Shown here: in pieces, positions 2,810-26,981 of the stretch | How positions within the stretch are numbered: the first letter of the stretch is position 1 | Layout of the letters: each line of letters opens with the position of its first letter | NCBI GenBank assembly: GCA_026625185.1 | Contig: CP113000.1 | Span: 1,965,622-1,997,621 of the forward strand | From: Thermodesulfobacteriota bacterium | GTDB lineage: Bacteria > Desulfobacterota > WTBG01 > JAGOGO01 | Direction: 5' to 3' | Length of the DNA: 32,000 bases | Translations under genes and position numbers: made by a program | The notes under the pieces: model-generated | What the model was told of the DNA's origin: nothing | The model's database searches: none | Seen by the model: only the letters and a program-made list of their open reading frames with translations

Positions 2810-5269
2810 TCATAATGAGATTCTGAATTTTCTTAATCGCAAGGCATTACTAACCACGGTAACTGAAGAAAGGGCCATGGCCGCCGCGGCAAACATCGGA
2901 CTTAAAAGAATTTTAAAAAAGGGGAAAAGTACTCCTGCAGCAACCGGAATCAAAATAGTGTTATACGCAAAAGCCCAGAAGAGGTTTTGTTTAATATTTC
3001 GAATGGTCGCTTTGCTTAACATAATAGCAGTTACCACTCCTTTTAGGTCACCGCTTATCAGGGTAATATCGGCTGACTCGATGGCTACATCGGTTCCGGT
3101 ACCAAGGGCAATGCCGATATCCGCCTGGGCTAAGGCTGGCGCATCATTAATGCCATCACCAACCATGCCCACGATTTTTCCCTCCGTCTGGAGCTTTTTT
3201 ATTTCATTGGCTTTGTCTTTGGGTAACACCTCTGCTAAAACCCGATCAATTTCGACTTCACGAGCGATTGCCTCTGCGGCCTTTCGGCCGTCCCCGGTTA
3301 TCATAATGACCTCAAAGCCCAGGTCGTGCAGAGCGGCAATAACTTTTTGGGATTCGGGCTTCACAATATCGGCAACCACGAGAATTCCGGCGATTTTACC
3401 CTGTACGACGATGAACATCAAGGTTTTTCCCTTGCCGGAGAGAAGATCGGCTTTTGTTTGCATATCCTTGAGCGCAATCCCTTTTGACTCCATAAAGTGA
3501 GCATTGCCGAGCATGACCTCTTTTCCCTGAATCTCGGCTGCAATCCCTTGACCTGGAAATGCTTGGAAATGTGCAGAATCATCTAGTGTCAGGTTTAGCG
3601 CTTTCGCTTTGTTGAGAATCGCTTCGGCCAGCGGATGTTCCGAGAACTTTTCCGCGGACGCGGCTAACCTAAGGATTTCTTTATTGTTAAATCCCTCAAC
3701 GGGAATAATATCAGTTACCGACGGCGCACCTTTGGTGATCGTACCTGTTTTATCGAAAACAATCGTGGTTAGCTTATGGGCTTTTTCCAACGCATCCCCG
3801 GTGCGAATGAGGATGCCCATCTCCGCTCCTTTGCCGGTTCCCACCATAATGGATGTAGGAGTGGCCAGGCCGAGCGCGCAGGGGCAGGCAATGATCATCA
3901 CGGCCACGAAATTGAGTAATGCATATGTCAAAGCTGGTTCTGGACCAAAGAAAAACCAGATAATAAAAGTTAGGAGCGCAATTCCCATAACCGTGGGGAC
4001 AAAGTAGCTCGCAATTAGGTCAGCAAGGCGGGCAATCGGAGGTTTTGATCCCTGGGCTTCTTCAACCAGCTTAATAATCTGGGCAAGCATGGTTTCTTTG
4101 CCTACCTTAGTAGCTTTAAATTTAAAGGTCCCGGTCTTGTTGATGGTAGCGCCGATAACTTCATCATTAAATTTTTTTTCCACGGGAATCGCTTCTCCGG
4201 TTATCATGGATTCATCCACCGAGGAATTGCCTTCCATAACGGTGCCATCCACCGGTATTTTTTCCCCCGGACGCACGATAACAATATCGCCAATCCGGAC
4301 ATCCTCTACCGAAGTTTCTAGTTCCTGTTCTTCCCGGATAATAATGGCGGTCTTTGGTTGAAGTCCCAGCAACCTCTTAATTGCTTCCGAGGTTTTGCCT
4401 TTCGCCCGGGCCTCCAAAAGACGTCCCAGGAGAATGATGACGATGATGGCTCCGGCAGTGTCAAAATAAACTTCGGGGGCAATACCTTGAGCCGCAAAGA
4501 GGCTGGGAAAGAAGGTGGCAAGAACACTGTATCCATAAGCGGCGCTGGTACCGACCGCAATCAGGGTGTTCATGTCAGTCGTTTTATGTTTGATAGTAGC
4601 CCATGCACCCTTATAAAATTGCCATCCTATCCAGAACTGGACTGGAGTTTGCAAAAGAAACTGAAGGATAAAATTGGTCTTTTTACTCAGATCCCATAAG
4701 GGGGAAAGGCCGAGATGATCCCAGGACATTAAAATAAAGAGGGGGATAATAAGGATGAGTCCGATGATAAATTTTTGTTTGAGGTTTTTTACTTCTTCTT
4801 CCCGGGCAAGTTTTTCTTTGTCAATGCCAAGACCTTCTTCGATGTGCGGAACCTTATAGCCGAGAGCTTCAACCTCCAGGGCTAAATCCCTGACCGTTAC
4901 TTTTCCCGGAGTAATGTCCACTTTCGCATTTTGTAAAGCAAGATTGACATGTGCCTGGATAACCCCCGGAATTTTGTTCAGGGCAGTTTCAACTCTTTTG
5001 ACACAGGATGCGCAGGACATTCCCTGAATCGGCAGGATGAGCTTTTTCCTTTTTACCTCAAAACCCAGGTCTTGGATGGCTTTGGTAAAATGATGCGGAA
5101 CAGTTTTATCAGGGTCGTACAGAATGGAAGCGGTTTCAGTGGCAAGATTTACCCGTGCTTCTTTTACTCCCTGCGTTTGGGTAAGGGCTTTTTCGATCCT
5201 GGCCACACAGCTGGCACAGTGCATTCCGGAGATGAAAAGGTCGAGTTTTTTAAAGGGCTCTTTTCCCAC
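2810..5269 (-). CDS. copA: Copper-translocating P1B-type ATPase with two N-terminal HMA domains
   Basis: 819 aa. Motifs seen: two GMxCxxC sites (GMHCASC, GMSCASC), TGE (ITGEAIP), the transmembrane CPC ([11 protein letters not shown]), the phosphorylation site DKTGT, and GDGINDAP. Confidence 0.95.
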
Positions 5270-5420: not shown

Positions 5421-7445
5421 CTAAACAGTAACATTAAAGTGCTCCCTGCTTTCTTCGTCCCAGACCCGGCACGCTTCGATAAGCAACATTTCGGTACTGT
5501 CAAAAATTTTCTGATCCAACAGTTGAGCATCAGGGTCCAGGATAAAAAGACCATGTTCCCAGCGCACTAAAAGATTAAAGGCCGCAACTCCTTCGACCTG
5601 TTTGTATCGGGCATTGATAACCTGTCCCTGGTCGAAGAATACTTCACCATTTTCCTCCTCCTTAAAAAGTTTAAGGGCTCCGGTCTTCCCTCCCGCGGAG
5701 AGCATTTGAATAAGGTCGGTAACGTGGATTTCCGCCAAGTTACCGGTAATGCCTTTTTTAGTCGAAGCGGACTTGGCTTTTTCTTGAGCTTTTTGGAGAG
5801 TATGTTTGATAAAATTCTGAATCTTGGCAATGAGGATGCTTGTGTTATAGGGTTTGGTAATAAAATCATCAGCGCCAACATCAAAACCCTTGCTTACGGT
5901 AGCGGGGTCGTGTTTTTCTGACAAAAAAACGAAATTGATGTTCCGATATTTATCATTAGCCTTTATTAGATCGCAAATAGAGAATCCATCGAGAGGTTTT
6001 GTATTTACCTCTGAGATAATAAGACACACCGGACTACTATCAAGGATAGCGATAACTTTTTCCGTGTCCCTTAACGGATAAGGGAAAATACCATTTTTTT
6101 TTAACAAAACGGACAGGTGATCGAGTTCTTCAAGGTTAGTATCAATGATAATTGCGCGGGGTGAGGATTCATCAATAAAGAGGTCTAAGATAATTTCCTC
6201 CAATAGGTTGACGATTTCCGGATCAAAGTATTTTTCTTTTAAAGAAAGGATAATGTCAAAGGAGCTTTTGAAGTTTTCATACCCTTCAAAATTAAGGAGG
6301 TGGATTAAGGCATCGACGGTTGCAATGATTCGGGAACCGAGCGGGATATCCTCACCTTTAAGGCCATCCGGGTCCCCTTCGCCGTCGTATCGTTCAAGGG
6401 TGTGAAGAAGAATTTTGTGAACTTCCGGGGGGAGGCGAGCGCCCTCATAAAGGCGCTCCGAGGATTGGGAATACTTTTTTAAAAGGTCACGGTGGTGTTC
6501 AAAATTGAAATTAAAAAGCGTTAAATGCTCGGGCGCAGCCATACAACAATCATGTAAATACGCTGCCAGAACATTGTAATACGTTTCTATTGCTTTGAGT
6601 CCTAGGTTCTGGGAAATTTCTTTTACGAGCTTGGCGACACTCGCGGAATGGCCCCGATAGCTTTCCCCTTTATACATTTCCAAGACATTGATCACGATAT
6701 TAAGCACCTCAATGAAGGTGTCGTCACTCAAAACCGACAAGGGGGATATTTGGTCCGCAAGGCGTTTTTGGCTTTCTTCTTCCGTTTTAGCGGGAGTGAG
6801 AATTTGATCGTCTATTATTACTGTTTTTGACTTTCGCTTTAGAACTTGAGTGGGTTTCAGGACTGGATTATCTGACTCAGTAAAGTCAGAATCGAGCAGC
6901 ACCGCAGAGTCTTCTTTTGGAACAAAGCTGGCAATGCTCTGGGGACTTTCGGTTTTGATCACTGTTTTTAGATTTTCCAGCGAAGAAGAATCATTTCCGT
7001 AAAATTTTTTTATCCCCGCTTTAATGGTGGAGTCTAAGGCGATATAAAGTTCTATTTCATTATATCCGGAGATATGTTTGATTAACTTGGACAGTTGTTT
7101 GTTCTCTGGGTCAGCAATCGCGACAGAGACTGTTTTGGATTTATCATAGCAGAAGAAAGGAAACACATTGTGTTTTAATGCAAAATCAGAAGGGATGAGT
7201 TCTAATACCCATTGGGGGATAGTCATTTTTAAAAGCTTGTCAGAAGAAATATATCTGACCTTAAAAAGTCCTGCCAGACACTTAAGGAGATCTATCTCAT
7301 TTAAAAAACCCAATTCAACCAGGAGTTCACCTATTTTTATCTGGGAATCCCCTCCTTTTTGCTGGCTAAGGGCGGCATTTAATTGCTCTTGGGTTATGAA
7401 TCCCAGCTCAATGAGTATTTCGCCGATCTTTTTGTTGCCGGTCAT
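5421..7445 (-). CDS. Multidomain signalling protein: MshEN/T2SSE_N-like N-terminus, degenerate HD-GYP (GDP variant), receiver with Glu at the phospho-site, C-terminal DUF4388
   Basis: 674 aa.
- N-terminus: KIGEILIELGFITQEQLNAALSQQ followed by KIGELLVELGFLNEIDLLKCLAGL, a tandem of the MshEN type.
- HD-GYP-like region: GHSASVAKLV...YLHDCCM...HTLERYDGEGDPDGLKGEDIPLGSRIIATVDAL, with GYP replaced by GDP and HHE replaced by HTLE.
- Receiver-like region: AIIIDTN...CLIISEVNTKPLDGF...FVFLSEK...FITKPY, with Asp->Glu at the acceptor position.
- DUF4388-like region: GNLAEIHVTDLIQMLSAGGKTGALKLF...GQVINARY...GVAAFNLLVRWEHGLFILDP. Confidence 0.75.
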   Translation of the reverse strand: MTGNKKIGEILIELGFITQEQLNAALSQQKGGDSQIKIGELLVELGFLNEIDLLKCLAGLFKVRYISSDKLLKMTIPQWVLELIPSDFALKHNVFPFFCYDKSKTVSVAIADPENKQLSKLIKHISGYNEIELYIALDSTIKAGIKKFYGNDSSSLENLKTVIKTESPQSIASFVPKEDSAVLLDSDFTESDNPVLKPTQVLKRKSKTVIIDDQILTPAKTEEESQKRLADQISPLSVLSDDTFIEVLNIVINVLEMYKGESYRGHSASVAKLVKEISQNLGLKAIETYYNVLAAYLHDCCMAAPEHLTLFNFNFEHHRDLLKKYSQSSERLYEGARLPPEVHKILLHTLERYDGEGDPDGLKGEDIPLGSRIIATVDALIHLLNFEGYENFKSSFDIILSLKEKYFDPEIVNLLEEIILDLFIDESSPRAIIIDTNLEELDHLSVLLKKNGIFPYPLRDTEKVIAILDSSPVCLIISEVNTKPLDGFSICDLIKANDKYRNINFVFLSEKHDPATVSKGFDVGADDFITKPYNTSILIAKIQNFIKHTLQKAQEKAKSASTKKGITGNLAEIHVTDLIQMLSAGGKTGALKLFKEEENGEVFFDQGQVINARYKQVEGVAAFNLLVRWEHGLFILDPDAQLLDQKIFDSTEMLLIEACRVWDEESREHFNVTV

Positions 7446-8840: not shown

Positions 8841-8910
8841 TTAAACACTGTCCAAAAGCATATCATAATTCAACAAGTTAATGGTTAGCATTTTTACCTG
8901 GAGGTGCAGA

Positions 8911-10572
8911 ATGTTAAGACATTTAAAACTTTCTTATAAATTATATTTTTTAAGTATAGGGACAATACTTCTTTTTTCTTTTACGTTGATTGGTGTGTGT
9001 CAAAAGTACAAACAAAGCCTGTTTAAACTGGATTATAAAAAGATTGAAGGGTTCAATCAAGTTGCGTGGGGGGTGTTAGATTTTTACGCTAAACAGGCTA
9101 ACGCAAATCTCATGACCAAGGATGAAGCTCAAGCCAAAGCAAAAGATGCAATAAAAAACCTGAGCTACAAAGAAACAAATGGCTCCGGTGGATATTTCTT
9201 CATTCTTGATACTGAACCACGGATGATTTGGCATCCTATTGCTTCGTATCTTGGAAAAAATCTTGCGAACGATGTTGACCCGGATGGGAAAAGGCTTTTT
9301 GTTGAAATGGTAGACATTGCCAAAAGCAAGGGAGAGGGTTTTTTGGATTATCGTTGGCCCAAACCCGGTAGCACTGCGCCAGTTGAAAAAATTTCTGCTG
9401 TCAAGATGTTACCGGAATGGGGTTGGATAATCGGAACGGGAATTTACATTGACGACAGCAAAGCCCAAGCTAACCAAATAGCTGGTTCTTTTATTTGGAT
9501 ACTTATTGCGATAGTGATTATCGCACTCCTCGCGACGTTTTTTATAGTCCGATCTATTACCCACCCAATTCAAGAAGTAATCACGTCCCTCACCAGCAGT
9601 GCTGAGGAGGTGGCATCAGCTTCTGGCCAAATATCCCAGGCAAGCCAGCAGCTCGCGGAGAGCTCCAATGAACAAGCCGCTTCCATAGAAGAGACCGCTT
9701 CATCTTTAGAAGAGATGTCTTCGATCACAAAGAAGAATGCGGAGAGCACAAAACTTGCGAGCCATTCGGCGGCTGATCTTATGGACTCCTTGGCAAAAGG
9801 AAAAGACGCCATGGCACGGATGTCCAACACGATTGCCCAGATCCAACAATCTTCAGATCAAACAACGAAAGTTATAAAAACTATCGAAGAAATCGCCTTT
9901 CAGACAAATTTGTTAGCTCTAAATGCAGCAGTGGAAGCGGCACGAGCGGGAGAATCCGGCCGGGGGTTCAGCGTGGTAGCCGAAGAAGTCCGCAACTTGG
10001 CTCGACGGTGTTCAGAAGAAGCCAAAAATACCGCTGCCTTCATTGAAGAATCTGTTAAGAATGCGCAAAGTGGGGTTCAGGTGTGCGGTGAAGTTGCAAA
10101 GATATTAAATAAAGTCGCTTTAGGAATAGAAAAAATGGCCCAGATGTCAGGAGAACTTTCCGCAGCGAGCGACGAGCAGGCCCGCGGCATCGAACAGATA
10201 AACGTTGCGGTTACTGAGATGGACAAAATCACCCAGGGTAATGCTGCAAATGCGGAAGAGTCAGCCTCATCAAGCGAACAACTTTCGGCTCAGTCGGAGG
10301 TGCTTTTTGGCTTTATAGAAGTTTTGATTGAATTGGTGAATGGAAATAAAAATAGACAGTTGAATCGTGGGGAGGCAGAAAAAATAGGTGGCATCAGCCC
10401 AGTGGGTACAAAGAAAAAAGACCTAAAGCCCCTCCCAAATGATATTAAGGGATTACCAGGCCGTAAACAAACGCACCCAAAAACACCAATGCTAATCCCA
10501 CTCCGGGAACCAAAGATCGCCAGGCCGGAACAACTTATCCCTTTGGAAGATAGTGATCTTAAGGAGTTCTGA
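8911..10572 (+). CDS. Methyl-accepting chemotaxis protein with a periplasmic sCache_2-like sensor and a long Pro/Lys-rich C-terminal tail
   Basis: The start at 8911 is preferred (GGAGG sits 6 nt upstream); the track start at 8881 lacks an SD. TM1 is [13 protein letters not shown]. Cache-like region: [17 protein letters not shown]...[14 protein letters not shown]...[15 protein letters not shown]2 follows. The signalling hairpin is [39 protein letters not shown] saw no obvious HAMP domain. Confidence 0.9.
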
Positions 10573-10745
10573 TAGAATACATTTACACCTCCTATCTATA
10601 TAGGAATTGTTCGACGCATCATGATTACCAAGATTTTTTAAGTATATGGCACCATCAAGTTCAAAATAAGTTATTTGAATTGCATTAGAAATATTTTAAA
10701 AAGAACAAAACAAGGGTGGGTTTAATAAGAAAAGGGGAGGAAAAA

Positions 10746-11111
10746 ATGAAGGTAATTGTGGTGGATGATTCATTGGTGATGAGAAAAATCATTGTCAATG
10801 TGGTTGAATCTTTAGGCTATGAAGGTGTTCATGCGACCAATGGAAAAAACTTATTAGAAATCTTGGAACACTGTGGTGGAGAAGTCGGGCTAGTCTTGCT
10901 TGATTGGAATATGCCGGGGATAAACGGAATTGAAGCTCTTAAAACTATGCAGAAAGACAGTCGCTTTCGTGCCATTCCGGTGTTCATGATTTCTACTGAA
11001 TCAGAAGATGCAAAAGTTGGAGAAGCTTTAAAAACAGGAGCAAAAGGCTATTTAGCAAAGCCCTTTACTCCAGAAGAGCTGGCGGCAAAAATAAAGGATA
11101 TTTTGGGGTAG
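10746..11111 (+). CDS. cheY: CheY-like single-domain response regulator
   Basis: The start at 10746 (MKVIVVDDS) has GGGGAGG 7 nt upstream. Canonical residues are present: DD (VVDDS), the acceptor Asp (LVLLDWNMPGING), Thr/Ser (FMISTES) and Lys (LAKPF). Confidence 0.9.
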   Translation: MKVIVVDDSLVMRKIIVNVVESLGYEGVHATNGKNLLEILEHCGGEVGLVLLDWNMPGINGIEALKTMQKDSRFRAIPVFMISTESEDAKVGEALKTGAKGYLAKPFTPEELAAKIKDILG

Positions 11112-11170: not shown

Positions 11171-12022
11171 ATGAACAAAATAATTCTATATGACTGCAGT
11201 CAGGAAGTGACTGACATGGTTAACAATCTCTTTGGGAAAAAGGTAGCCATTGAAAATTCTTCCTTTGATGCTCAGAGGCCTCTTCAAGAATTCCGCATGG
11301 TTATTGTTGAGACCGGCAGTAAAAAAACCGAGCAGTTATTGCAAGAGATCAAAGCATTACGATATGCCTGTAACTTTAGAAACATTCCCATTATTGTGAT
11401 GAAAAAAAAAGGCGACACCTACCCTAACAACCCTTATCTTATGGCTGGCGCTACTGAAATTTTGTCTTGGGAAGCCCCGCCCTTAGCTTGTCGACAGATC
11501 CTCCAGGGGTATCTGATCCCGAACCGGAAACCGTTAGATCAAGAGATGGAATACCTTACCCCTTTTATTGACAGCACTAAACATATTTTGAAGACCATGA
11601 CTTCGATGGATGCTGAATATAAAGAACTATATTTTCCCAGTGACTTTCGAATATTTGGAGATGTTTCAGGGATCGTCGGGTTATCCGGAAAAGCAGAAGG
11701 GAATGCGGTAATTACTTTTTGTTGGGATTTGGCCCGAAAAGTTATTTCTCACATGATGCGTGTGACCGAAGATCAAATCAATGCTGAGTTTATTCACGAT
11801 GGGGTGGGGGAGCTGATAAATATGATCAGCGGATTTGCGAAAAAGTCTTTTGTTGGGAAGCCCTATCATTTTGAACTTTCAATACCCACTGTGGTGATGG
11901 GATCAGGCCATCAAATTGGGCATCCTGAAGAGGCAAGCATCGCTTTACTTATCTTTGATGTTGAAAAAAATTCCTTCGCCTTGCAGGTGTGCCTTAAACT
12001 TAAAATAGAAAAAGGCAATTAA
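11171..12022 (+). CDS. Degenerate receiver-like N-domain fused to a CheX/CheC-family phosphatase domain
   Basis: 283 aa. The C-terminal half carries the CheC/CheX/FliY signature D-x3-E-x2-N followed by Pro about 22 residues later (DGVGELINMISGFAKKSFVGKPYHFELSIP), plus GIVGLSGKAEGNAVITF. In the N-terminal ~115 aa, IILYDCS...MVIVETGSKK...PIIVMKKK resembles a receiver with Glu at the acceptor position and other conserved residues lost. Confidence 0.7.
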   Translation: MNKIILYDCSQEVTDMVNNLFGKKVAIENSSFDAQRPLQEFRMVIVETGSKKTEQLLQEIKALRYACNFRNIPIIVMKKKGDTYPNNPYLMAGATEILSWEAPPLACRQILQGYLIPNRKPLDQEMEYLTPFIDSTKHILKTMTSMDAEYKELYFPSDFRIFGDVSGIVGLSGKAEGNAVITFCWDLARKVISHMMRVTEDQINAEFIHDGVGELINMISGFAKKSFVGKPYHFELSIPTVVMGSGHQIGHPEEASIALLIFDVEKNSFALQVCLKLKIEKGN

Positions 12023-12259: not shown

Positions 12260-14089
12260 ATGAGCGAAAAAAATGAAATCCTTTTAATTAACCGTGACAA
12301 AGGGTTTCTGGAGGACATGGCCGGGTCTCTCCGTCAAGCGGAATTTAAAGTTCATACCGCTTTTGGGATGCACGAAGCCTTGTTGGCCCTTACTTTTTAT
12401 CCCGTGGGTTTAATACTTTGTGATAATGTTTTACAGGATGTTACGGGATACGATTTTTTAAGGTTTTTAAAAAATGACCCGCTAAGGGACTCGGTCCCCT
12501 TTGTATTTTTTGTGCCCATCAATGACCAGGGACACGCTTTTAAAGCTTTTGAATTGGGAGCAGATGATTTTTTAGTGTACCCCATGGAAGTAGAGGATTT
12601 TGTCAGCCGGATAAAGGAAATAATGGCGCTCCAGTATCCTGCTGCAAAGGAAATTCCTGTTGATGGGTCCGGCAAAGCCTCTCCACTGTTACCCGCTGAT
12701 ACAACAACACCTCCGCAGGAACGACGTCGGGCCAAAAGGAAGCAGCCCTTGCCTAATCTAAAGGTCTCTCTTTCCAGGGATGAAATTCTTTGGATGCCGG
12801 GGAGAATAAAAAATTTTAGCCTCGATGGCATGTTAGTGATTACCTCTTTGCTGGGAAAGCCGGGGGTTTCACTTATAGTGAAGTTTTCACTGCCTCAAGG
12901 AGTTGTCACCATCAAGGGACACATTAAACATGTTGCTTTTGATGATTTTCGGCAACCAGTGGGCCTAGGGGTAACCTTTCCGGAAAATTCAGCGTGGCGC
13001 GAGATCAATGATTATTTTACTTCCCTTATTAACTCGGCAGACCCTGGAACCTCAAAAAAAGAATCTTGTGAACAACAAACACCTTCTCCTCCTCAGTGGA
13101 CAGGAGCCGGAAAAACAGTCTTTCTCCCTTACCAAGGATCGGAAGGAGAGGATTTCCTCCTGTCAGACAGTGCTCCGAGAACCGAAGAAGAAACGTATGA
13201 ATCCCGATTCTATCATAGCTTGGTGGGCAAGCAGCTCGGTTCCTATAAAGCAGTGTGTTTCATTGGCTCAGGCAGCATGGGGGGGGTTTTCAAAGGTTGG
13301 GATTCTGCTCTGGAGCGGGAGGTGGCGCTCAAAGTAATTTCTTTTGAGCTATCTTCCCAAGAGACTTTTCGGGAAATGTTCATTAAAGAAGCCCGATTGA
13401 TCTCCAAGCTCGACCATCCCAATATTGCACACATCTATTCCATTGGAGACACTGACGGCATTCTTTTTTTTGCGATGGAATTAATCGCCGGGGAAACTTT
13501 GTCGGATTTGATAATAGAACATGGCAACCTTAACACATTAAAGGGCTTGGATTATTTGTTAACGGTGTGTCAAACCTTAGACTTTGTTAGGCAAAAGAAT
13601 ATAATCCACCGCGATATAAAGCCGGAAAATATTGTTATCAATGACAAAGGGGTTTTAAAGATCGTTGATTTTGGAGTAGCCAAAAAAATTGATGTTAATG
13701 CCCCCGGAGAGATGCCGGAAGGTATCGTGGGGTCACCTCTTTATATCTCTCCTGAGTCAATTTCCGGCCACGTTATTGATCATCGCAGTGATATTTATTC
13801 TTTGGGCGCTACCTTTTACCATGTGTTTACCGGCTACCCCCCTTTTGAAGGTGATGATGCTAAAACCATTCTCCTTCACCACCTCAACAGCAAGTCCAGA
13901 CCCCTTAAGGAAAGAAACCCAAAGGTCTCTGTTTTTCTCTCCCGGGTTATTGAAAAGATGATGGCAAAAGACCCTCAGGAACGGTACCAAAACTACAAAA
14001 CCATTGTTCAGGAGTTACAGTCTTTCCGTTCAATGGTTATCCAAGCCAAAAAAAAGAAAAATAGTTTTTTACCCGGCACGGGGCAATAA
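12260..14089 (+). CDS. Atypical receiver - PilZ - Hanks-type Ser/Thr protein kinase fusion
   Basis: 609 aa.
- REC-like region: LILCDNVLQDVTGYDFLRFLK has the acceptor Asp, but the conserved Lys is replaced (FLVYPM).
- PilZ motifs: RRAKR (the RxxxR type, from nt 12722) and NFSLDG (the D/NxSxxG type).
- Kinase motifs: GSGSMGGVFKG, VALKV, HRDIKPENIV, DFGVAK, GSPLYISPE.
- The SD before 12260 is weak, so the start is less certain. Confidence 0.85.
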   Translation: MSEKNEILLINRDKGFLEDMAGSLRQAEFKVHTAFGMHEALLALTFYPVGLILCDNVLQDVTGYDFLRFLKNDPLRDSVPFVFFVPINDQGHAFKAFELGADDFLVYPMEVEDFVSRIKEIMALQYPAAKEIPVDGSGKASPLLPADTTTPPQERRRAKRKQPLPNLKVSLSRDEILWMPGRIKNFSLDGMLVITSLLGKPGVSLIVKFSLPQGVVTIKGHIKHVAFDDFRQPVGLGVTFPENSAWREINDYFTSLINSADPGTSKKESCEQQTPSPPQWTGAGKTVFLPYQGSEGEDFLLSDSAPRTEEETYESRFYHSLVGKQLGSYKAVCFIGSGSMGGVFKGWDSALEREVALKVISFELSSQETFREMFIKEARLISKLDHPNIAHIYSIGDTDGILFFAMELIAGETLSDLIIEHGNLNTLKGLDYLLTVCQTLDFVRQKNIIHRDIKPENIVINDKGVLKIVDFGVAKKIDVNAPGEMPEGIVGSPLYISPESISGHVIDHRSDIYSLGATFYHVFTGYPPFEGDDAKTILLHHLNSKSRPLKERNPKVSVFLSRVIEKMMAKDPQERYQNYKTIVQELQSFRSMVIQAKKKKNSFLPGTGQ

Positions 14090-14157: not shown

Positions 14158-16422
14158 ATGGCCCTGGACAATAAAACAATCAAGGAAGAAGGTTTTTCCC
14201 CGATGAATTATTCGGAGGACATGTTGGTTCATTCTGTTGATGATTTGGCAACGGCTCTTATCCAACTTGAACCATATGATAGTTCAGGCATCAGCCATTT
14301 TCGGGAATCGCTTAAAGAGGTTATGGAGAATGGATCATTTTCTGAACCAGTGAAAAAAAAATTAAAGGAAGCATTAGGGAAAATCGAAAGAGTGATAGAG
14401 GGAAAATCTTCTGCCACTGAAGCTGCTTTAATCGAGACCGGTAAAATCATTGAAGAAGTGATGCAGGAAATGGCCCCGCAAGAGTTTGCCTCTGCGCCCA
14501 AAAGCTTTGTTTCCGAAGAGGAAGTCGAGGCTTTAGAAAAAAAAGAACTCAAGTATTTTTCCAACGATGCCGACCATAGCCTTATAAAAGAATTTATTGT
14601 TGAAAGCATGGAGTTAATTACCTGGGCGGAAGAGGCTTTGCTTACCTTAGAAAATGATCCTGATGATGGCGAGGCAATTGCCACTGTTTTCCGCGCTTTT
14701 CATACCATCAAGGGGACTTCTTCTTTTCTTGAGCTAAAAATTGTATCCGAACTTGCTCACCACACCGAGTCACTGTTTAGCCAAGTTCGAGAAGGTTCAA
14801 TCCGCTACGGAGGTGGTTATGCTGAGGTTGCGCTTTATTCGGTGGACATGATCAAAGAAGTTATCCGTTTGGTAGAAGAAGCCTTGCGGGGGAAGCCCTT
14901 GTTAAAACCACCAGGATACAATGAACTCATCCATCTGCTCCAACATCCCGAACAAGCCTGCGCTTTGAGAGGGGTGGAAGAAATAACTCCCCCTTCAGCT
15001 CGACTAGGTGATATCTTGGTTTCTCAGGGAGTGGTGAAACGTGAAGAATTAGAAGAAGCGGCACAAAAGAAAGGCGATAAACCTTTAGGGGTGGAACTTT
15101 TAAAATTAAAAACAGTGTCAATAAAAGACGTTGCCAGAGCCCTTCGAACACAAAAGCGGATGCAAGGAGTCACTCCAGAGCTTGAATCGTCGGTACGAGT
15201 TAGAACTGACCGACTTGATAAATTAATTGATATGGTTGGGGAAATGGTCATCGCTCACTCGATGGTTACTCAGGACAGTATGAAGATGGGAGAGGACTAT
15301 TATGAATTTCAGCAAAGGGTTTCCCACACGGGTAAGATTGTTCGGGAACTTCAGGACTTGAGCATGTCGATTCGGATGGTTCCCCTTAAATCAATCTTCC
15401 AGAGAATGACTCGACTGGTCCGTGATCTTGCGAATAAATCGGGGAAGCACATAAATTTTTTAACATTTGGTGAGGAAACTGAGGTTGACCGCAACATGGT
15501 TGATCTTGTCGCCGATCCTCTGATGCACATGGTGCGAAATTCAGTAGACCACGGCATAGAATTTCCCGAAGAGCGGGAAAAGAACGGGAAATTTCGCGAG
15601 GGAACAATAAAACTTTCTGCTTATCATTCGGCAGGCAATGTAGTGATAGAAATAGAGGATGACGGGCGAGGTCTTGACCGAGATGTCATTTTTGCGCGGG
15701 CCCGGGAGAAAGGGCTTATTAGTGACGTAAGCTTACATACAGAACGGGATATTCTCAACCTGATCTTTGAGCCGGGATTTTCCACTGCCGACAAGGTTAC
15801 TGATATTTCCGGCCGGGGTGTGGGTCTGGATGTGGTAAAAAAGAACATTACCGCTCTGCGAGGCAAGATTGAGGTCCAGTCAAATGCCGGAAAGGGTTGT
15901 GTCTTTAAAGTTCGGGCACCGCTTACCCTCGCTATTATTGATGGGATGATTATTCGCGCAGGCAAAGAACGATACGTCATTCCTACCGTTTCGATCGTGA
16001 AAGCGTTACAGCCTCAAGAGAAAGATCTCAGCACGGTGCTTAAAAAAGGAGAAATGCTTTTCTTGCAAGGGAAATTCATTCCGCTGTTACGATTAGGTGA
16101 CCTTTTTGATATTGAAGATGCTCAGTCGGAACCCACGCAGGCCATTGTTGTTGTGGTTGAAGATAATGAACGGCATACGGGAATTGTGGTGGATGAACTT
16201 CTTGGACAACAGCAGATTGTTATTAAGTCGTTGGGAGAGGCATTGAGAGATTTTCGGGGTGTTTCCGGAGGCGCGATTATGTCGGATGGACGGGTGGGAC
16301 TAATACTCGATGTAGGCGGGTTGGTCAAACTTGCTCACGCGGAGCAGGCAGAATGGGAGGATAGAAGGAGAGTGAAAGAAATTACAAAAATAGAAAAGGA
16401 GGATAAACATGAGTTATCATGA
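14158..16422 (+). CDS. cheA: CheA histidine kinase with an N-terminal extension and an MshEN-like insert in place of P2
   Basis: 754 aa. The Hpt motif is FRAFHTIKGTSSFL. Dimerisation region: VRVRTDRLDKLIDMVGEMVIAHS. HATPase motifs: HMVRNSVDHGIE, DDGRGLD, GRGVGLDVV. A C-terminal CheW-like domain is present. Residues 282-332 (nt 15001-15153) read RLGDILVSQGVVKREELEEAAQKK-GDK-PLGVELLKLKTVSIKDVARALRTQ. About 135 aa of unassigned acidic sequence precede Hpt. Confidence 0.9.
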   Translation: MALDNKTIKEEGFSPMNYSEDMLVHSVDDLATALIQLEPYDSSGISHFRESLKEVMENGSFSEPVKKKLKEALGKIERVIEGKSSATEAALIETGKIIEEVMQEMAPQEFASAPKSFVSEEEVEALEKKELKYFSNDADHSLIKEFIVESMELITWAEEALLTLENDPDDGEAIATVFRAFHTIKGTSSFLELKIVSELAHHTESLFSQVREGSIRYGGGYAEVALYSVDMIKEVIRLVEEALRGKPLLKPPGYNELIHLLQHPEQACALRGVEEITPPSARLGDILVSQGVVKREELEEAAQKKGDKPLGVELLKLKTVSIKDVARALRTQKRMQGVTPELESSVRVRTDRLDKLIDMVGEMVIAHSMVTQDSMKMGEDYYEFQQRVSHTGKIVRELQDLSMSIRMVPLKSIFQRMTRLVRDLANKSGKHINFLTFGEETEVDRNMVDLVADPLMHMVRNSVDHGIEFPEEREKNGKFREGTIKLSAYHSAGNVVIEIEDDGRGLDRDVIFARAREKGLISDVSLHTERDILNLIFEPGFSTADKVTDISGRGVGLDVVKKNITALRGKIEVQSNAGKGCVFKVRAPLTLAIIDGMIIRAGKERYVIPTVSIVKALQPQEKDLSTVLKKGEMLFLQGKFIPLLRLGDLFDIEDAQSEPTQAIVVVVEDNERHTGIVVDELLGQQQIVIKSLGEALRDFRGVSGGAIMSDGRVGLILDVGGLVKLAHAEQAEWEDRRRVKEITKIEKEDKHELS

Positions 16423-16942
16423 TGATGTTTCGCAGCTTGGTGGAATAAAGGGAGGGCTGGCAGATAAGGCGGAGAAGTACTTAACCTTTAACCTTGCGGC
16501 TGAAGAATATGGTATCGAAATTTTAAAAGTGCAGGAAATTATCGGACGCATGCCGGTAACCAAGGTTCCCCGCACCCCCCCTTTTATTCGAGGCGTAATC
16601 AATTTACGCGGCAAAGTGATTCCGGTATTTGATTTGAGATTGAAATTCGGCATGGAGATTAAAGAGGATACCCCTAGGACATCAATTATTGTTGTTAAAA
16701 TTAAACGCTCAGGACATCACATGACCATGGGTGTAATTGTGGATGATGTATATGAAGTCGTGGGTATTGAGGCAAAAGATATTGAGCCGACACCTGAGTT
16801 TGGCGCCAATATAGATACTGATTTTATTTTGGGGGTCGGAAAGATAAATCAGAAAGTCGTGATGCTTCTCGATGTCGATAAAGTTTTATCAGGGGGAGAA
16901 GTTACACTCGTTGATCAGGTTACCCACGTTCAAGAAAAATAA
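16409..16942 (+). CDS. cheW: CheW coupling protein
   Basis: 177 aa. YLTFNLAAEEYGIEILKVQEI...RGVINLRGKVIPVFDLR is the typical CheW pattern. AGGAGG lies 6 nt upstream, and the gene overlaps the cheA end by 14 nt. Confidence 0.9.
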   Translation: MSYHDDVSQLGGIKGGLADKAEKYLTFNLAAEEYGIEILKVQEIIGRMPVTKVPRTPPFIRGVINLRGKVIPVFDLRLKFGMEIKEDTPRTSIIVVKIKRSGHHMTMGVIVDDVYEVVGIEAKDIEPTPEFGANIDTDFILGVGKINQKVVMLLDVDKVLSGGEVTLVDQVTHVQEK

Positions 16943-17075
16943 ATTAAAGGCTTGCTTCTTCACGCCCGGTAAAGGGGAAAAATGATTTTGACCGGATGAA
17001 GAAAGATCAAAGAGATCAGAAATGAAAAACTTTTTTAGGTTTTAAAAAAGTTATCCTTTATCGTAAGAGGCATTT

Positions 17076-17945
17076 GTGTTATTAGAAAAAAGAACAATTC
17101 AAAATTGCGTGAGCGAACAAAAAAATACTGTAGACTCAACATCGCTTGACTTGAGTCAAAAACATTTTTTAAAGATAAGCAAAACAGTTCACCAAATGTG
17201 CGGCATTAGCCTTCACGAGGGGAAAAAGGCCTTAGTGCGATTCCGTCTTTTGAAGCGGCTTCGGGCGTTGGGAATGGAAAGTTTTAAAGAATATATTGAC
17301 TTTCTTGAGCATGATAGTTCCGGAAAAGAAATCCGTTCGCTGATTGATGTTATGACCACCAACAAAACCAACTTTTTTCGGGAGATAACCCATTTTAATT
17401 ACCTTCGCGAGAATATTTTACCTGACCTCAAGGTGCCGCACCTTCGTTTCTGGTGCGCCGGGTGTTCTTCGGGTGAAGAACCTTTTTCATTAGCTATTGT
17501 GCTGCGCGAAGAAATAGAGAACATTGACATAAGGGATATTAAGATTTTAGCAACCGATGTCTCTTTAAAAATGCTGGAGATGGTTCGTCAGGCATACTAT
17601 TCTCCAGAAATGCTCGGTGATATAACTCCACTGCTGCTGCAAAAATATTTTATCCGAGTTCGAAGCGAATCAACGACGCTTTACCAGGTTAAAGATGAAA
17701 TACGGGCGATGGTCCGCATAGGCCGGATTAACTTGATAGAACCCTGGCCCATGAAAGGTCTTTTTCATGTTATCTTTTGCAGAAATGTCATGATCTATTT
17801 TGACCGGCAAACCCAGCAGGAGCTTATAAATCGTTTTTGGGAATTTCTTCAAACCGGCGGGTACCTCTTTCTTGGTCATTCGGAGAGCCTTTCGGCCATT
17901 AGTCATAATTTTAAATATATGACCCCAGCGGTCTACCGAAAATAA
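17076..17945 (+). CDS. cheR: CheR chemotaxis protein methyltransferase
   Basis: 289 aa with a GTG start and AAGAGG upstream. Motifs seen: TNKTNFFRE, and the SAM-binding region RFWCAGCSSGEEPFSLAI ... IFCRNVMIYFD. Confidence 0.9.
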   Translation: MLLEKRTIQNCVSEQKNTVDSTSLDLSQKHFLKISKTVHQMCGISLHEGKKALVRFRLLKRLRALGMESFKEYIDFLEHDSSGKEIRSLIDVMTTNKTNFFREITHFNYLRENILPDLKVPHLRFWCAGCSSGEEPFSLAIVLREEIENIDIRDIKILATDVSLKMLEMVRQAYYSPEMLGDITPLLLQKYFIRVRSESTTLYQVKDEIRAMVRIGRINLIEPWPMKGLFHVIFCRNVMIYFDRQTQQELINRFWEFLQTGGYLFLGHSESLSAISHNFKYMTPAVYRK

Positions 17946-17967
17946 AAAAATCTTATCTGACGAGACC

Positions 17968-18438
17968 ATGCACATTCGCAAGGAGATTATTTATCACGTT
18001 TTGGAAGAGATTCTGGAGAACTTAGCTTTTCTCTTTTTTGCGCCGGACGACACCCGGGATACCATGGACTATAATTTGGCGGTTGCGGCCAAGATATCCT
18101 TTACCGGCCTTTTTTCAGGCATGCTGGTTCTTGCTATTTCTAATCAGATTCTTCCTGAAATAGCTCGAAACATGCTTGGGGTAGACGAAGACATTCCTGT
18201 TCATCACCAGCACGACGCCTTTAAAGAGCTTCTCAATGTGATCTGTGGAAACATGCTGCCCGCGATCGCAGGGAAAAGAGAAGTTTTTACTATTGGTGTT
18301 CCCGATATCATTTCCCCGGAAGAAATGACCGCGTCAGCTTTTCGTTGCCCCACAACATCCATGGCCAAAGCAGAACTGGATAGTGGTAAGATTGATTTTT
18401 TTTTACTTATTGATGGCGAAGAGATCCCCGAAACATAG
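17968..18438 (+). CDS. CheX/CheC-like small chemotaxis phosphatase-family protein
   Basis: 156 aa. It has the signature D-x3-E-x2-N (DAFKELLNVICGNMLPAIAGKREVFTIGVP) with Pro at the same spacing as in the 11171-12022 protein. The gene sits between cheR and cheB. Confidence 0.6.
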   Translation: MHIRKEIIYHVLEEILENLAFLFFAPDDTRDTMDYNLAVAAKISFTGLFSGMLVLAISNQILPEIARNMLGVDEDIPVHHQHDAFKELLNVICGNMLPAIAGKREVFTIGVPDIISPEEMTASAFRCPTTSMAKAELDSGKIDFFLLIDGEEIPET

Positions 18439-18482
18439 GGTGTTAAAAAATTATTTCTGGAGGAAATGGGAAGATTAAGCGA

Positions 18483-19541
18483 ATGATCAAAGTTCTTATT
18501 GTAGATGATTCTGCGGTCATCCGTAAAATTTTGACCGAGGAACTGTTTAAATACCAAGATATCGACATTATCGGCACTGCGGTTGACCCTTATATCGCCC
18601 GGGATAAAATCGTGCGCCTTCGTCCGGATGTTATTACTCTTGACTTAGAAATGCCCCGGATGGATGGTCTCTCATTTTTGGCGAAACTGATGCAGTATTA
18701 TCCTGTGCCGGTGGTAATACTGAGTTCCTTTACGCCGGAAAATAGCGAAAATGCTTTACGAGCCTTAGAATTAGGTGCGGTTGAAGCCATTTGTAAACCG
18801 GGGTCTTCATATGCTGCTGCAGATGTTTCTAGGAGGTTGGTTCAGGCTATTCGGGCGGCAGCGTCTTCACGGATCGTAAGTTTAAAACAATCAGTCACTA
18901 CCCCAGCCATAGGGCAACTTAATAACCTTCACATCCAAACCGCTGACAAGGTAATTGCTATTGGCGCCTCTACCGGAGGAACCAGGGCTATCGGGATTGT
19001 GCTTATGAGCCTTCCTAAAAATACGCCTGGTGTCTTAATTGTTCAACATATGCCGGAAAGCTTCACTCACGCTTATGCGGAAAGATTAAATAAAATGTGC
19101 TTGCTTGAGGTGAGGGAAGCTAAGGATAATGATCATGTAAAACCGGGAGTAGCATTAATTGCACCCGGCGATCGACATATGATACTTAGCCAAAGCAGAG
19201 GGAAAAATGTGGTAAAGATTAAAGAAGGCCCGCCAGTTAATTATCAAAGGCCCAGTGTTGATGTATTATTTCAATCAGTAGCTCGATGCGCCGGGGAAAA
19301 TGCAATGGGGGTTTTGCTGACCGGTATGGGAGCTGACGGCGCCAAAGGAATGCTTGCTTTATATGAACGCGGGGCTTACACTATAGCACAGGATGAGGAG
19401 AGTTGCGTGGTATTTGGCATGCCACGGGAAGCGATAAAACTTGGCGCGGTTGATAAAGTTGTTTCTTTGCAAGAAATCCCCCGGACGATTATTAAGGCTT
19501 CAGATAATCCACTGATAAAACCGCGGGTAAAAAGATTATAA
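18483..19541 (+). CDS. cheB: CheB protein-glutamate methylesterase (REC + esterase)
   Basis: 352 aa. The receiver is canonical (VDDS, ITLDLEMPRMDG, KP). The esterase catalytic motifs are GASTGG, QHMP and TGMGADG. Confidence 0.95.
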   Translation: MIKVLIVDDSAVIRKILTEELFKYQDIDIIGTAVDPYIARDKIVRLRPDVITLDLEMPRMDGLSFLAKLMQYYPVPVVILSSFTPENSENALRALELGAVEAICKPGSSYAAADVSRRLVQAIRAAASSRIVSLKQSVTTPAIGQLNNLHIQTADKVIAIGASTGGTRAIGIVLMSLPKNTPGVLIVQHMPESFTHAYAERLNKMCLLEVREAKDNDHVKPGVALIAPGDRHMILSQSRGKNVVKIKEGPPVNYQRPSVDVLFQSVARCAGENAMGVLLTGMGADGAKGMLALYERGAYTIAQDEESCVVFGMPREAIKLGAVDKVVSLQEIPRTIIKASDNPLIKPRVKRL

Positions 19542-19671
19542 CCTGAGGTTTTTTAGTTAGTTGCCGATTGATGTGGCAAAACAGACAAAAAAAGGATTTA
19601 TTAAAAAAAATCATTATCAGCGAAAAAATTTTTAAAAGAGAAAAATAGGTAAAAAATCGGATACTCCCGCC

Positions 19672-20157
19672 TTGACAAATTATTTTCTCAAGCCTGGCTA
19701 CATCTTTTTGCCTTCGAAATCAGTGTCGATCTCAACGGTGCTTGGCTCTAGTGTTTCGGTCTGTATTTATGATCGGAGGCGGAAAGTAGGAGGAATGAAT
19801 CACTTTAGGCTTCCTTATACCCGGGAGAAGCATATAGCGACCCCGATATTTGGGAACGTTGCCACGCTGGCTCTGATCCGGATGATGCTCGAAGATGGTT
19901 CTAAATTAAAACACTTGGAAGCACAAATTTTCGGGGGGGCGCATAATTTCAAACTTTGTCCCCAGAATATTGGATTAGAAAATATTAAGATTGCCCGGAG
20001 AATCTTGGTACGGAAGAGCGTACCCATTGTTTCGGAAGATGTTGGAGGAATGAAAGGAAGAAAAGTTGTTTTTTCCACCAATTTTAATGAAATCGTTGTA
20101 CTCCGCGTAGAACGTCTCCGGAGGTCTGACTGGTACCCTTATGATGAGGACCGTTAG
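19672..20157 (+). CDS. cheD: CheD chemoreceptor glutamine deamidase
   Basis: 161 aa. LGSSVSVCIYD...GGMNHFRLP...GG..GRKV is the CheD pattern. TTG is the first possible start after an in-frame stop at 19633 and has no clear SD, so the 5' boundary is uncertain. Confidence 0.8.
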   Translation: MTNYFLKPGYIFLPSKSVSISTVLGSSVSVCIYDRRRKVGGMNHFRLPYTREKHIATPIFGNVATLALIRMMLEDGSKLKHLEAQIFGGAHNFKLCPQNIGLENIKIARRILVRKSVPIVSEDVGGMKGRKVVFSTNFNEIVVLRVERLRRSDWYPYDEDR

Positions 20158-25581: not shown

Positions 25582-26022
25582 ATGTTTCGCGGCTCATACG
25601 AACATACCATTGATTCAAAGGGCAGGGTCAGTTTACCGGCTCAATTTCGAAGCCTGTTACCCAAGGATAACGAGCGCCTGGTAATCACGAACTATATTCC
25701 CTCTCATCTTTGGGCTTTTACGTATGAGAACTGGATAAAATTAGAGGAAAAATTAGCCTCCTTTCCTTTGACTGATCCGGATATTCGTTCTTTTAAACAT
25801 TTTTTTGTTGCCGGCGCTCACGATGTGCCGGTGGATAAGTTAGGCCGGGTTCTGGTCCCCCCCAGGCTCCGTGAATATGCCCAGTTAAACAAAGAGGTTG
25901 TTTTTGTCGGATCGATTACCCATATCGAAATCTGGGATAAAGGAAATTGGAAACCCACGTTTACAACCTCTGAGTCAAACGTGGAACAGGTTGCCCGAAA
26001 ATTGGCTGACCTGGGTTTTTAA
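25582..26022 (+). CDS. mraZ: Transcriptional regulator MraZ
   Basis: 146 aa. Two SpoVT/AbrB-like repeats carry the DxxGR motifs (DSKGRVSLPAQFR and DKLGRVLVPPRLRE). First gene of the dcw order. Confidence 0.95.
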   Translation: MFRGSYEHTIDSKGRVSLPAQFRSLLPKDNERLVITNYIPSHLWAFTYENWIKLEEKLASFPLTDPDIRSFKHFFVAGAHDVPVDKLGRVLVPPRLREYAQLNKEVVFVGSITHIEIWDKGNWKPTFTTSESNVEQVARKLADLGF

Positions 26023-26025
26023 TAA

Positions 26026-26961
26026 ATGGCCGATTTCCATCAGCCGGTTTTATTAAACGAAACAGTATCAACACTCAACTGCCATCCCGGCGGGATTTAT
26101 GTAGACGCGACAGTAGGTGGAGGAGGTCATGCGTTTCACATATTTAAAATCTGTCCACATATCAAACTGCTCATTGGTATTGACCGAGATGAAGATGCCT
26201 TGCTCCAGGCTGAACGAAGACTGGCTTCCTTTAAAAGCCAGGTTGTTTTGATTAAAGAAAATTATTCACAGATTAAAACAATTATCTCAGATTTGCAAAT
26301 AAAATCAGTGGATGGAGTTCTTCTTGATCTTGGCGTTTCTACACATCAGCTTTTATCTTCTAACCGGGGGTTTGGATTTTCTGCCGAGGGACCTCTCGAT
26401 ATGAGAATGGATAGAGAACAACAGATCACCGCGTCTGATTTAGTAAACACTCTTCCCGAACAAGAGTTAAGGAAAATTCTACGGGAATACGGTGAGGAAA
26501 GGCACGCGGCCTCGATTGCAAAAACGATTGTAAGGGAAAGAAAAAAACAACCGATAAAAACAACCTTGGAGTTGGCAAATGTGGTTGCCAGGGCAATTCC
26601 TTTTTCGCCGCGTCCGCGAAAAATCCATCCGGCAACCAGAACTTTTCAGGCATTGAGGATTGCGGTCAATGACGAATTTGCCAACCTGGAGAGCGTTCTT
26701 CCTGATGCCGTCGATATATTGGCGCAAAAAGGGAGGATAGCGGTCATTTCTTTTCATTCCTTGGAGGATCGAATCGTTAAAAATTTTTTTCGCCAACAAT
26801 CAAAGTCCTGTGTTTGTTCCCCGCGACTGCCGAAATGCGCATGCGGGCAGATCCGAAAACTTAAGGTGCTAACCAAAAAGCCGATTGTGCCAACGGCTGA
26901 AGAAATAAGGATGAATCCTCGTTCCCGGAGTGCCCGGCTTCGGGGAGCAGAAAAACTCTAA
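26026..26961 (+). CDS. rsmH: 16S rRNA m4C1402 methyltransferase RsmH (MraW)
   Basis: 311 aa. Motifs seen: HQPVLLNE, DATVGGGGHA, DLGVSTHQL, FHSLEDRIVK. Confidence 0.95.
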   Translation: MADFHQPVLLNETVSTLNCHPGGIYVDATVGGGGHAFHIFKICPHIKLLIGIDRDEDALLQAERRLASFKSQVVLIKENYSQIKTIISDLQIKSVDGVLLDLGVSTHQLLSSNRGFGFSAEGPLDMRMDREQQITASDLVNTLPEQELRKILREYGEERHAASIAKTIVRERKKQPIKTTLELANVVARAIPFSPRPRKIHPATRTFQALRIAVNDEFANLESVLPDAVDILAQKGRIAVISFHSLEDRIVKNFFRQQSKSCVCSPRLPKCACGQIRKLKVLTKKPIVPTAEEIRMNPRSRSARLRGAEKL

Positions 26962-26981
26962 AGATCAAGGAGGAGATGATT

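Follow-up and report, generated by a model that had tools for sequence, protein, structure and literature searches.

The 32,000-nt stretch of contig CP113000.1 analysed here (the window; all coordinates below are positions within it) contains a chemotaxis operon whose cheA gene, at 14158..16422 on the forward (+) strand, encodes a protein of 754 amino acids, as judged from the open reading frame, the Pfam domains of its product and a full-length AlphaFold2 (AF2) model computed with 70 homologues. Between its P1 and P3 domains this CheA carries a tandem 24-residue motif of the type called MshEN_N, which is the cyclic dimeric GMP (c-di-GMP) binding unit of the Vibrio cholerae ATPase MshE (VcMshE), and this segment is the subject of the present report. 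An NCBI protein that bears the name CheA and comes from a Thermodesulfobacteriota metagenome-assembled genome (MAG) has the same sequence (100% identity). Hpt, H-kinase_dim, HATPase_c and CheW all exceeded their Pfam gathering scores in the CheA of the window, which identifies it as a CheA histidine kinase.

Pfam, NCBIfam and AF2 together give the order N-terminal helical domain, P1, MshEN_N, P3, P4 and P5, all encoded on the + strand. The N-terminal domain (residues 27-105; 14236..14472) was predicted by AF2 as four helices, 27-36, 42-58, 63-80 and 87-105, with predicted local distance difference test (pLDDT) scores of ~84-90, and matched no family in Pfam or NCBIfam. P1 (residues 140-270; 14575..14967), with Pfam Hpt at 142-214 and five helices in the AF2 model, contains the phospho-accepting His182 (codon at 14701-14703) within FRAFHTIKGT, and this His is invariant across 70 homologues. 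The P3 dimerisation domain follows at residues 344-405 (15187..15372; Pfam H-kinase_dim, AF2 helices 351-376 and 379-405), the P4 ATP-binding kinase domain at residues 452-590 (15511..15927; Pfam HATPase_c) and the P5 CheW-like domain at residues 596-724 (15943..16329; Pfam CheW). We also observed that the N-terminal regions of CheA homologues are ~100 residues longer, with a second HxxKG Hpt motif in several of them.

A tandem 24-residue motif between P1 and P3

Nucleotides 15001-15153 (+) encode residues 282-332, which read RLGDILVSQGVVKREELEEAAQKK-GDK-PLGVELLKLKTVSIKDVARALRTQ, and the translation agrees exactly with the residues quoted for this segment in the initial annotation of the window. 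Copy 1, RLGDILVSQGVVKREELEEAAQKK, corresponds to residues 282-305 (15001..15072), the GDK spacer to residues 306-308 (15073..15081) and copy 2, PLGVELLKLKTVSIKDVARALRTQ, to residues 309-332 (15082..15153). The MshEN_N motif is RLGxx(L/V/I)(L/V/I)xxG(L/V/I)(L/V/I)xxxxLxxxLxxQ, in two tandem 24-residue copies with a short spacer, and a relaxed pattern, [RKPN]hGxxhhxx[GAS]hhxxxxhxxxhxx[QNKRYWST], has been used to search for it (Wang et al. 2016, PMC5013675); the form given in the initial annotation is the one that stands in the abstract of that paper. Copy 1 satisfies the relaxed pattern and deviates from the consensus just where the initial annotation had placed its deviations, with A for L at position 21 and K for Q at position 24. 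Copy 2 keeps L2, G3, LL6-7, V17, L21 and Q24, begins with P at position 1, and departs from the relaxed pattern at positions 10 (Lys, not Gly/Ala/Ser) and 11 (Thr) only; the lack of a central Gly, also pointed out at the outset, is due to this Lys. At the key contact positions R1/L2/G3/L17/L21/Q24, copy 1 has R L G L A K (4/6) and copy 2 has P L G V L Q (4/6 identical, 5/6 conservative), and the spacer is 3 residues long in CheA vs 5 in VcMshE. When the CheA sequence was shuffled 200,000 times with its composition preserved, the relaxed motif turned up singly 224 times, and in tandem not once.

Profile and sequence searches bore out the proposed likeness to MshEN. The NCBIfam model NF053729 ("c-di-GMP_motif, MshE-related"; 53 positions, cut-off 38 bits) aligns to residues 282-332 from end to end (profile positions 1-53/53), scores 33.6 bits (E 2.5e-8) against the whole protein, under its cut-off, and 40.0 bits, over it, against the isolated 76-aa fragment, and matches 33/42 homologous CheA fragments at E<=1e-3. 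With residues 262-352 as a single-sequence phmmer query against all PDB sequences, the best seven matches were all MshEN proteins, among them Thermus thermophilus PilF (6F8L; E 7.7e-6) and V. cholerae MshE (5HTL; E 0.013). A profile of the CheA family found MshEN proteins as its top 13 PDB matches, with E-values of 1.8e-7 for PilF and 8.8e-4 for MshE 5HTL; in these PDB searches nearly all matches were MshEN proteins. In hhalign comparisons the same family profile aligned with the VcMshE N-terminus at 91% probability (E 9.4e-7), each motif being paired with its counterpart, and, also in register, with the corresponding segment of Aeromonas veronii CheA at 86% probability (E 5e-6). Against a second MshEN protein, encoded in the window itself at 5421..7445, the result was less clear: the probability was only 24%, and the alignment spanned copy 1 and the start of copy 2.

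Structure prediction gave a result of the same kind. In an AF2 model of residues 270-345 alone, built with 42 aligned homologues, the segment forms the four helices 279-290, 295-304, 310-316 and 322-336 with a core pLDDT of 80-90, in line with the four-helix bundle that had been anticipated for it. Foldseek searches of the PDB with this model returned as best match 5HTL, the complex of MshE with c-di-GMP (root mean square deviation 1.6 Å over 55 columns, 38% identity), next 8PFA, the complex of PilF GSPII-B with c-di-GMP, and then the N-domains of Xanthomonas PilB and XpsE; the top eight PDB matches are all MshEN/T2SSE_N domains. The model thus predicts a four-helix fold superposable on MshE residues 1-64. 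After the module there is no MshEN_C α/β subdomain: P3 starts ~18 residues on, and AF2 places no β-strands between the two.

The full-length model places the module in a flexible setting. P1 occupies its five helices through residue 270, low-confidence linkers with pLDDT <50 follow at 270-280 and 337-350, P3 begins with two long helices (351-405), and the module's four short helices are the only secondary structure from residue 270 to residue 351. The segment therefore lies, as had been proposed, between the Hpt domain (Pfam, 142-214) and the dimerisation region (Pfam H-kinase_dim, 344-405). We found no Pfam match to P2 anywhere in this CheA and no β-strand between P1 and P3 in the full-length model, and there is therefore no P2 α/β domain in this interval; a diverged P2 domain, which we considered as a candidate for the segment, is ruled out by the all-alpha prediction. 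The suggestion in the initial annotation that the segment replaces P2 holds as a statement about position and about the missing β-strands, but not as a statement about equivalence: because MshEN_N follows P2 in the CheA of A. veronii, the module is better described as an insertion directly before P3 than as a P2 replacement.

Conservation and distribution of the module

How widely the insert occurs among CheA homologues had been left as a question by the initial annotation, and we find that it is conserved across the whole clade to which this CheA belongs. The tandem unit is present in essentially all (~118/120) of the best CheA homologues, which are 50-87% identical, and in the family copy 1 has the consensus PR-h-GDILVAQGK..R..VE.. 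and copy 2 the consensus [PK]-h-G..hhK....S..DV.QALR[TA]Q. A comparison of 109 distinct family segments shows the strongest conservation at the positions whose equivalents in MshE contact c-di-GMP. In copy 1, R1 is kept in 99%, G3 in 100%, D4 in 95% and G10 in 94% of segments, and position 17 is V, L or I in 100%; in copy 2 the figures are 100% for G3, 98% for V17, 99% for L or I at position 21 and 98% for Q24. The canonical hydrophobic-cluster positions are hydrophobic in all 109. Outside the canonical site, E299, R295 and R330 (R22 of copy 2, 100%) are also invariant in the family.

The homologue P0064, a CheA of 654 amino acids with ~55-60% identity, lacks precisely the MshEN_N segment: its P1 runs to …LTRMDD and, after the gap, ERKSSLRVRTDRLD stands at the start of P3. 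Since P0064 is without exactly that segment, the segment is a discrete module. Variation in the opposite direction was seen as well. Some CheAs of the clade (among them P0009, P0039, P0043, P0057, P0028, P0032, P0072 and P0074) have three half-motifs, the third being a copy-1-like repeat that abuts copy 1 with no spacer, and some larger CheAs, among them P0165, P0242 and P0225, have four half-motifs, that is, two MshEN_N units. These variants suggest that the repeats have multiplied in the linker between P1 and P3.

A scan of species-representative genomes found relatives in at least 276 of them; the query was an MshEN_N+P3 alignment and is biased to insert-bearing CheAs, so that the scan describes distribution and not frequency among all CheAs. 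The best 80 of these at least 276 loci all span the module and P3, and both copies are kept in 79/80. The relatives are mostly Desulfobacterales and other Thermodesulfobacteriota, and others come from MAGs labelled Nitrospinota, Acidobacteriota, Planctomycetota, Armatimonadota and Tectomicrobia. The CheA-family profile, searched against 1.84 billion cluster representatives, gave 1,045 matches at E<=1e-3; the best 150 of these 1,045 comprise 51 CheAs or CheA fragments and 65 proteins with arrays of at least 4 MshEN_N half-motifs. The top-scoring matches of this search (P0121-P0132) are proteins of 780-1,180 amino acids with three blocks of four half-motifs, and in P0121 the blocks alternate with Hpt-like segments (…RRTFHNTKW…) that have an altered HxxKG signature. 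Taken together, the conservation pattern shows that the module has been kept under purifying selection in a P2-less CheA clade.

Genomic neighbourhood of cheA

The che operon of the window, as read from Pfam, is complete, includes two CheX phosphatases and has the order Cache-MCP, CheY, long CheX, REC-PilZ-Ser/Thr kinase, CheA, CheW, CheR, CheX, CheB, CheD, all on the + strand. The Cache-domain chemoreceptor (Cache-MCP) is encoded at 8881-10572, cheY at 10716-11111 and the long cheX, of 283 amino acids, at 11171-12022. The N-terminal extension of this long CheX, of ~125-160 residues, matches no family; we compared the protein with the (MshEN_N)2-CheX architecture of Wang et al. 2016, and it does not have that architecture. 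The cheW, cheR, cheX, cheB and cheD block extends over 16409..20157 (Pfam, open reading frame coordinates), with cheW at 16409-16942 and the second cheX at 17968-18438. The reading frames of cheA and cheW overlap by 14 nt (16409-16422), cheW starting before cheA has ended, and this arrangement suggests translational coupling of cheA and cheW.

Directly upstream of cheA, the gene at 12260..14089 encodes a REC-PilZ-Ser/Thr kinase (Pfam Response_reg 7-118, PilZ 154-244, Pkinase 332-577) whose translation contains the PilZ signatures RRAKR (RxxxR) and NFSLDG ((D/N)xSxxG), and which is a further candidate c-di-GMP receptor of the operon. On the reverse (-) strand at 5421..7445, a protein of 674 amino acids has the layout MshEN-HD-GYP-like-REC-DUF4388 (Pfam MshEN 76-153, HD_5, Response_reg and DUF4388); its MshEN is a full N+C domain with a canonical motif, to which NF053729 aligns at residues 6-58 with 48.7 bits. 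The HD-GYP-like motifs of this protein look degenerate, with HDCCM for the usual HDxGK and GDP for GYP, and to judge from its sequence its role may be that of a sensor and not of an active phosphodiesterase. An Rfam scan of the window returned no family at threshold, c-di-GMP and cyclic GMP-AMP (cGAMP) riboswitches included.

The neighbourhood that is conserved throughout the clade consists only of cheA-cheR-(cheD)-x-cheY-cheX-cheB. The flanks of the window are unrelated to chemotaxis: on the - strand, a multihaem c-type cytochrome (980-1930) and a heavy-metal P-type ATPase with two HMA domains (2810-5269), and on the + strand, at 25582-30819, the start of a dcw cluster with mraZ, rsmH, an ftsI-like penicillin-binding protein gene and murE.

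The putative ligand site and comparison with known systems

In MshE, Arg1 stacks on guanine, guanine O6/N7 are read by the backbone NH groups of Gly3 and of the residue after it, Leu2 of one motif forms with Leu17/Leu21 of the other a hydrophobic triad for each base, and Gln24 contacts ribose and phosphate; the VcMshE substitutions G11L and G40I abolished ligand-induced thermal stabilisation, and single Leu-to-Ala changes lowered affinity at least 10-fold (Wang et al. 2016, PMC5013675). Isolated VcMshEN_N 1-62/65 binds c-di-GMP with a dissociation constant (KD) of 0.35 µM (Wang et al. 2016, PMC5013675), and MshEN_C is therefore dispensable. Mapped onto CheA, site 1 comprises R282, G284/D285, L298, A302 and L310, site 2 comprises P309, G311/V312, L283, V325 and L329, and at the Gln position copy 1 has K305 and copy 2 has Q332. 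XpsE is inactivated by G11V, G40L, L54H, L58C and Q61V, and the Deinococcus geothermalis PilB_3 (DgPilB_3) by a change of motif 2 Gly3 to Glu; CheA has none of these. Because these substitutions are absent, we judge it likely from the residues of the site that this CheA binds c-di-GMP, probably with micromolar affinity.

The reading that we prefer, and in which we place somewhat more than even confidence, is that the module is a stand-alone four-helix MshEN_N unit for c-di-GMP, flexibly tethered between P1 and P3 in a CheA without P2, with ligand-dependent kinase output. A single c-di-GMP would span both 24-residue half-sites, and each guanine would be recognised through backbone NH groups of position G3 and its successor, G284/D285 in copy 1 and G311/V312 in copy 2. 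The bases would be packed by the hydrophobic triads L298/A302/L310 and L283/V325/L329, R282 would stack on one base, and Q332 would touch the ribose-phosphate. Ligand might then order the module, ~11-18 residues from the P3 dimerisation helices, and the ordered module could alter how freely P1 gets to the ATP site of P4 or to response regulators, so that CheA autophosphorylation or phosphotransfer would follow cellular c-di-GMP. That c-di-GMP affects the output of this kinase is what we infer, and the sign of the effect is a guess; we lean to inhibition at high c-di-GMP because this nucleotide generally suppresses motility.

Several observations weigh against this reading. Both half-sites of CheA depart from the canonical motif, and the departures run through the family: in copy 1, position 21 is Ala or Val and position 24 is variable (H, K, Y or Q), and in copy 2, position 1 is Pro or Lys and position 10 is K, Q, G or N. 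XpsE and D. geothermalis PilB_3 each have an MshEN_N-like domain that does not bind (Wang et al. 2016, PMC5013675). Against whole CheA, NF053729 scored 33.6 bits (E 2.5e-8), below its 38-bit cut-off. The Foldseek E-values were weak (0.05 or above), as is explained by the tiny size of the domain, ~55 residues. Pfam MshEN (PF05157) matched neither CheA, nor the fragment, nor any of the 42 family fragments; we do not take this as evidence against MshEN_N, because PF05157 covers mainly MshEN_C, and in the MshEN-HD-GYP protein of the window it likewise falls at residues 76-153, downstream of the motif. With PF05157 silent and the motif present, CheA therefore carries MshEN_N only. The REC-PilZ-kinase and the MshEN-HD-GYP protein, as two more c-di-GMP-related signalling proteins of the locus, speak for the reading, but their genes are found with cheA in no relatives other than the two closest and therefore cannot serve as functional evidence for the family as a whole. 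Finally, our literature search found no published evidence that c-di-GMP alters the activity of any CheA.

The alternative that survives best, although we think it unlikely, is that the module is a degenerate MshEN_N without nucleotide binding, serving as a structured spacer or docking unit (for example for CheY, CheB or CheX) between P1 and P3. In its favour, Arg1 and the turn Gly are absent from copy 2, and copy 1 has Ala21 and a variable position 24; the invariant E299, R295 and R330, which lie outside the ligand site, could form an interaction surface, the module sits in P2's place, and XpsE and DgPilB_3 are relatives that do not bind. Yet the inactivating changes of these two proteins are not found here, both G3 residues are invariant and the cluster positions are hydrophobic. 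The CheA of A. veronii, with a more deviant copy 1 (Met1), still binds c-di-GMP, and it has both P2 and MshEN_N, so that the module is not a simple P2 surrogate.

We hold as doubtful a more elaborate proposal, a closed circuit in which CheA would sense c-di-GMP, CheA~P would feed the RECs of the PilZ-kinase and the HD-GYP-like protein, and chemotactic input would thereby reset local c-di-GMP and Ser/Thr phosphorylation, which would in turn gate CheA; the same low estimate covers a variant with a 3'3'-cGAMP-type sensor. In such a circuit the 5421-7445 protein would be a possible phosphodiesterase or a possible degenerate sensor.

Binding of another cyclic dinucleotide by the module, such as 3'3'-cGAMP, is a very improbable reading and a purely speculative one, in which the asymmetry of the half-sites would suit an asymmetric ligand. 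That asymmetry is clade-wide, with R-h-G-D in copy 1 vs P/K-h-G-V/A in copy 2 and differences also at positions 21 and 24. Some former Deltaproteobacteria, for example Geobacter, produce 3'3'-cGAMP, and the host here is a Thermodesulfobacteriota MAG. VcMshEN binds cGAMP too, weakly, with a KD of 3.3e-4 M (Wang et al. 2016, PMC5013675). Against this, neither half-site has lost the Gly3 backbone geometry by which MshE reads guanine O6/N7 and excludes adenine, and neither a cGAMP synthase nor a cGAMP riboswitch was seen in the window with Pfam and Rfam. The last alternative, a fortuitous likeness to the motif in what would be a chance helical linker or a P2 that has diverged strongly, draws on the silence of Pfam MshEN and on Foldseek E-values >0.05, but PF05157 mainly models the MshEN_C part that CheA lacks, the tandem motif arose in 0/200,000 shuffles, profile, PDB and hhalign comparisons independently give matches in register and the all-alpha prediction has none of the β-strands of P2, so that this extremely improbable reading is effectively refuted by the PDB, Foldseek, profile and shuffle results.

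Returning to the preferred reading, of a c-di-GMP unit built into the kinase, the protein itself is a P2-less member of an architecture that has been catalogued since 2016 and that was once shown, for A. veronii CheA, to bind c-di-GMP. The initial annotation had implied that a CheA regulated through such an insert would be new. This does not hold for the architecture or for binding, since Wang et al. 2016 list a CheA-MshEN_N with a KD of 2.6 µM; it holds for the effect on the kinase, of which we found no study. Beyond Wang 2016 our literature search found no functional study of CheA-MshEN_N, and any other joint appearance of the terms was unrelated or an artefact of reference lists. The prior demonstration consists only of in-vitro binding by one Aeromonas fragment, reported in a supplementary table. 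A c-di-GMP-binding module within CheA would be the most direct link between c-di-GMP and chemotaxis. The finding is unchanged in kind from what was known and will not surprise specialists in c-di-GMP or chemotaxis; it points to a well-populated, variable family and makes an effect of c-di-GMP on CheA easier to test. The large P2-less clade, with its natural insert-free, three-half-motif and double-module variants, is a possible model system, and the operon of this genome contains unusually many c-di-GMP modules.

The closest known system is the A. veronii CheA (EKB11881), whose architecture is HPT-CheY-binding-MshEN_N-P3-P4-P5 (Suppl. Table 4), whose motifs are aligned in Suppl. Fig. 3c, and whose residues 261-390 bind c-di-GMP with a KD of 2.6 µM (Suppl. 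Table 6; all in Wang et al. 2016, PMC5013675). Both proteins have a tandem 24-residue MshEN_N without MshEN_C within a CheA, directly N-terminal to P3, and in both the stretch from Q24 of copy 2 to the conserved VRV at the P3 start is ~13 residues long. They differ in that P2 (CheY-binding) precedes the module in A. veronii, whereas the CheA described here has none, and in the spacer, of 9 residues in A. veronii vs 3 here. The deviations are also distributed differently: A. veronii CheA has Met1 in copy 1 and a canonical copy 2 with Gly10, while in our protein copy 1 is near-canonical and copy 2 is without Arg1 and Gly10. The present clade has, in addition, an extra N-terminal helical domain, and the lineages are distinct, A. 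veronii belonging to the Gammaproteobacteria and this clade to the Thermodesulfobacteriota and others.

VcMshE (5HTL) is the best structural match, with the same 53-residue two-motif site on a four-helix unit and with R1, L2, G3, D4, G10 and L17 of copy 1 identical. It differs in having the MshEN_C α/β subdomain and a T2SS/T4P ATPase as output, whereas here MshEN_N stands alone in a histidine kinase; moreover, 4/12 key residues are substituted in CheA (L->A, Q->K, R->P, L->V) and the turn Gly of copy 2 is Lys. The T. thermophilus PilF GSPII domains (6F8L, 8PFA, 8PDK) are the best PDB sequence match to the CheA module and have in common with it the 'GK' after the turn Gly and the 'KPLG' at the start of copy 2. 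The three full MshEN domains of PilF regulate a pilus ATPase and not a kinase.

Other routes by which c-di-GMP reaches chemotaxis include YcgR, which acts on the motor, and the Cle CheY-like proteins. Further examples are the PilZ-containing chemoreceptors, such as Cbp1 (PMC6454048), the MapZ-CheR1 adaptor (PMC6370697) and PlzC (PMC12799141). All of these resemble the system proposed here in that the c-di-GMP level is integrated with chemosensory output, but they act at the receptor, the methyltransferase, CheY-like proteins or the motor, mostly via PilZ, whereas the CheA described here would have its candidate sensor, with an MshEN_N fold, built into the kinase itself.

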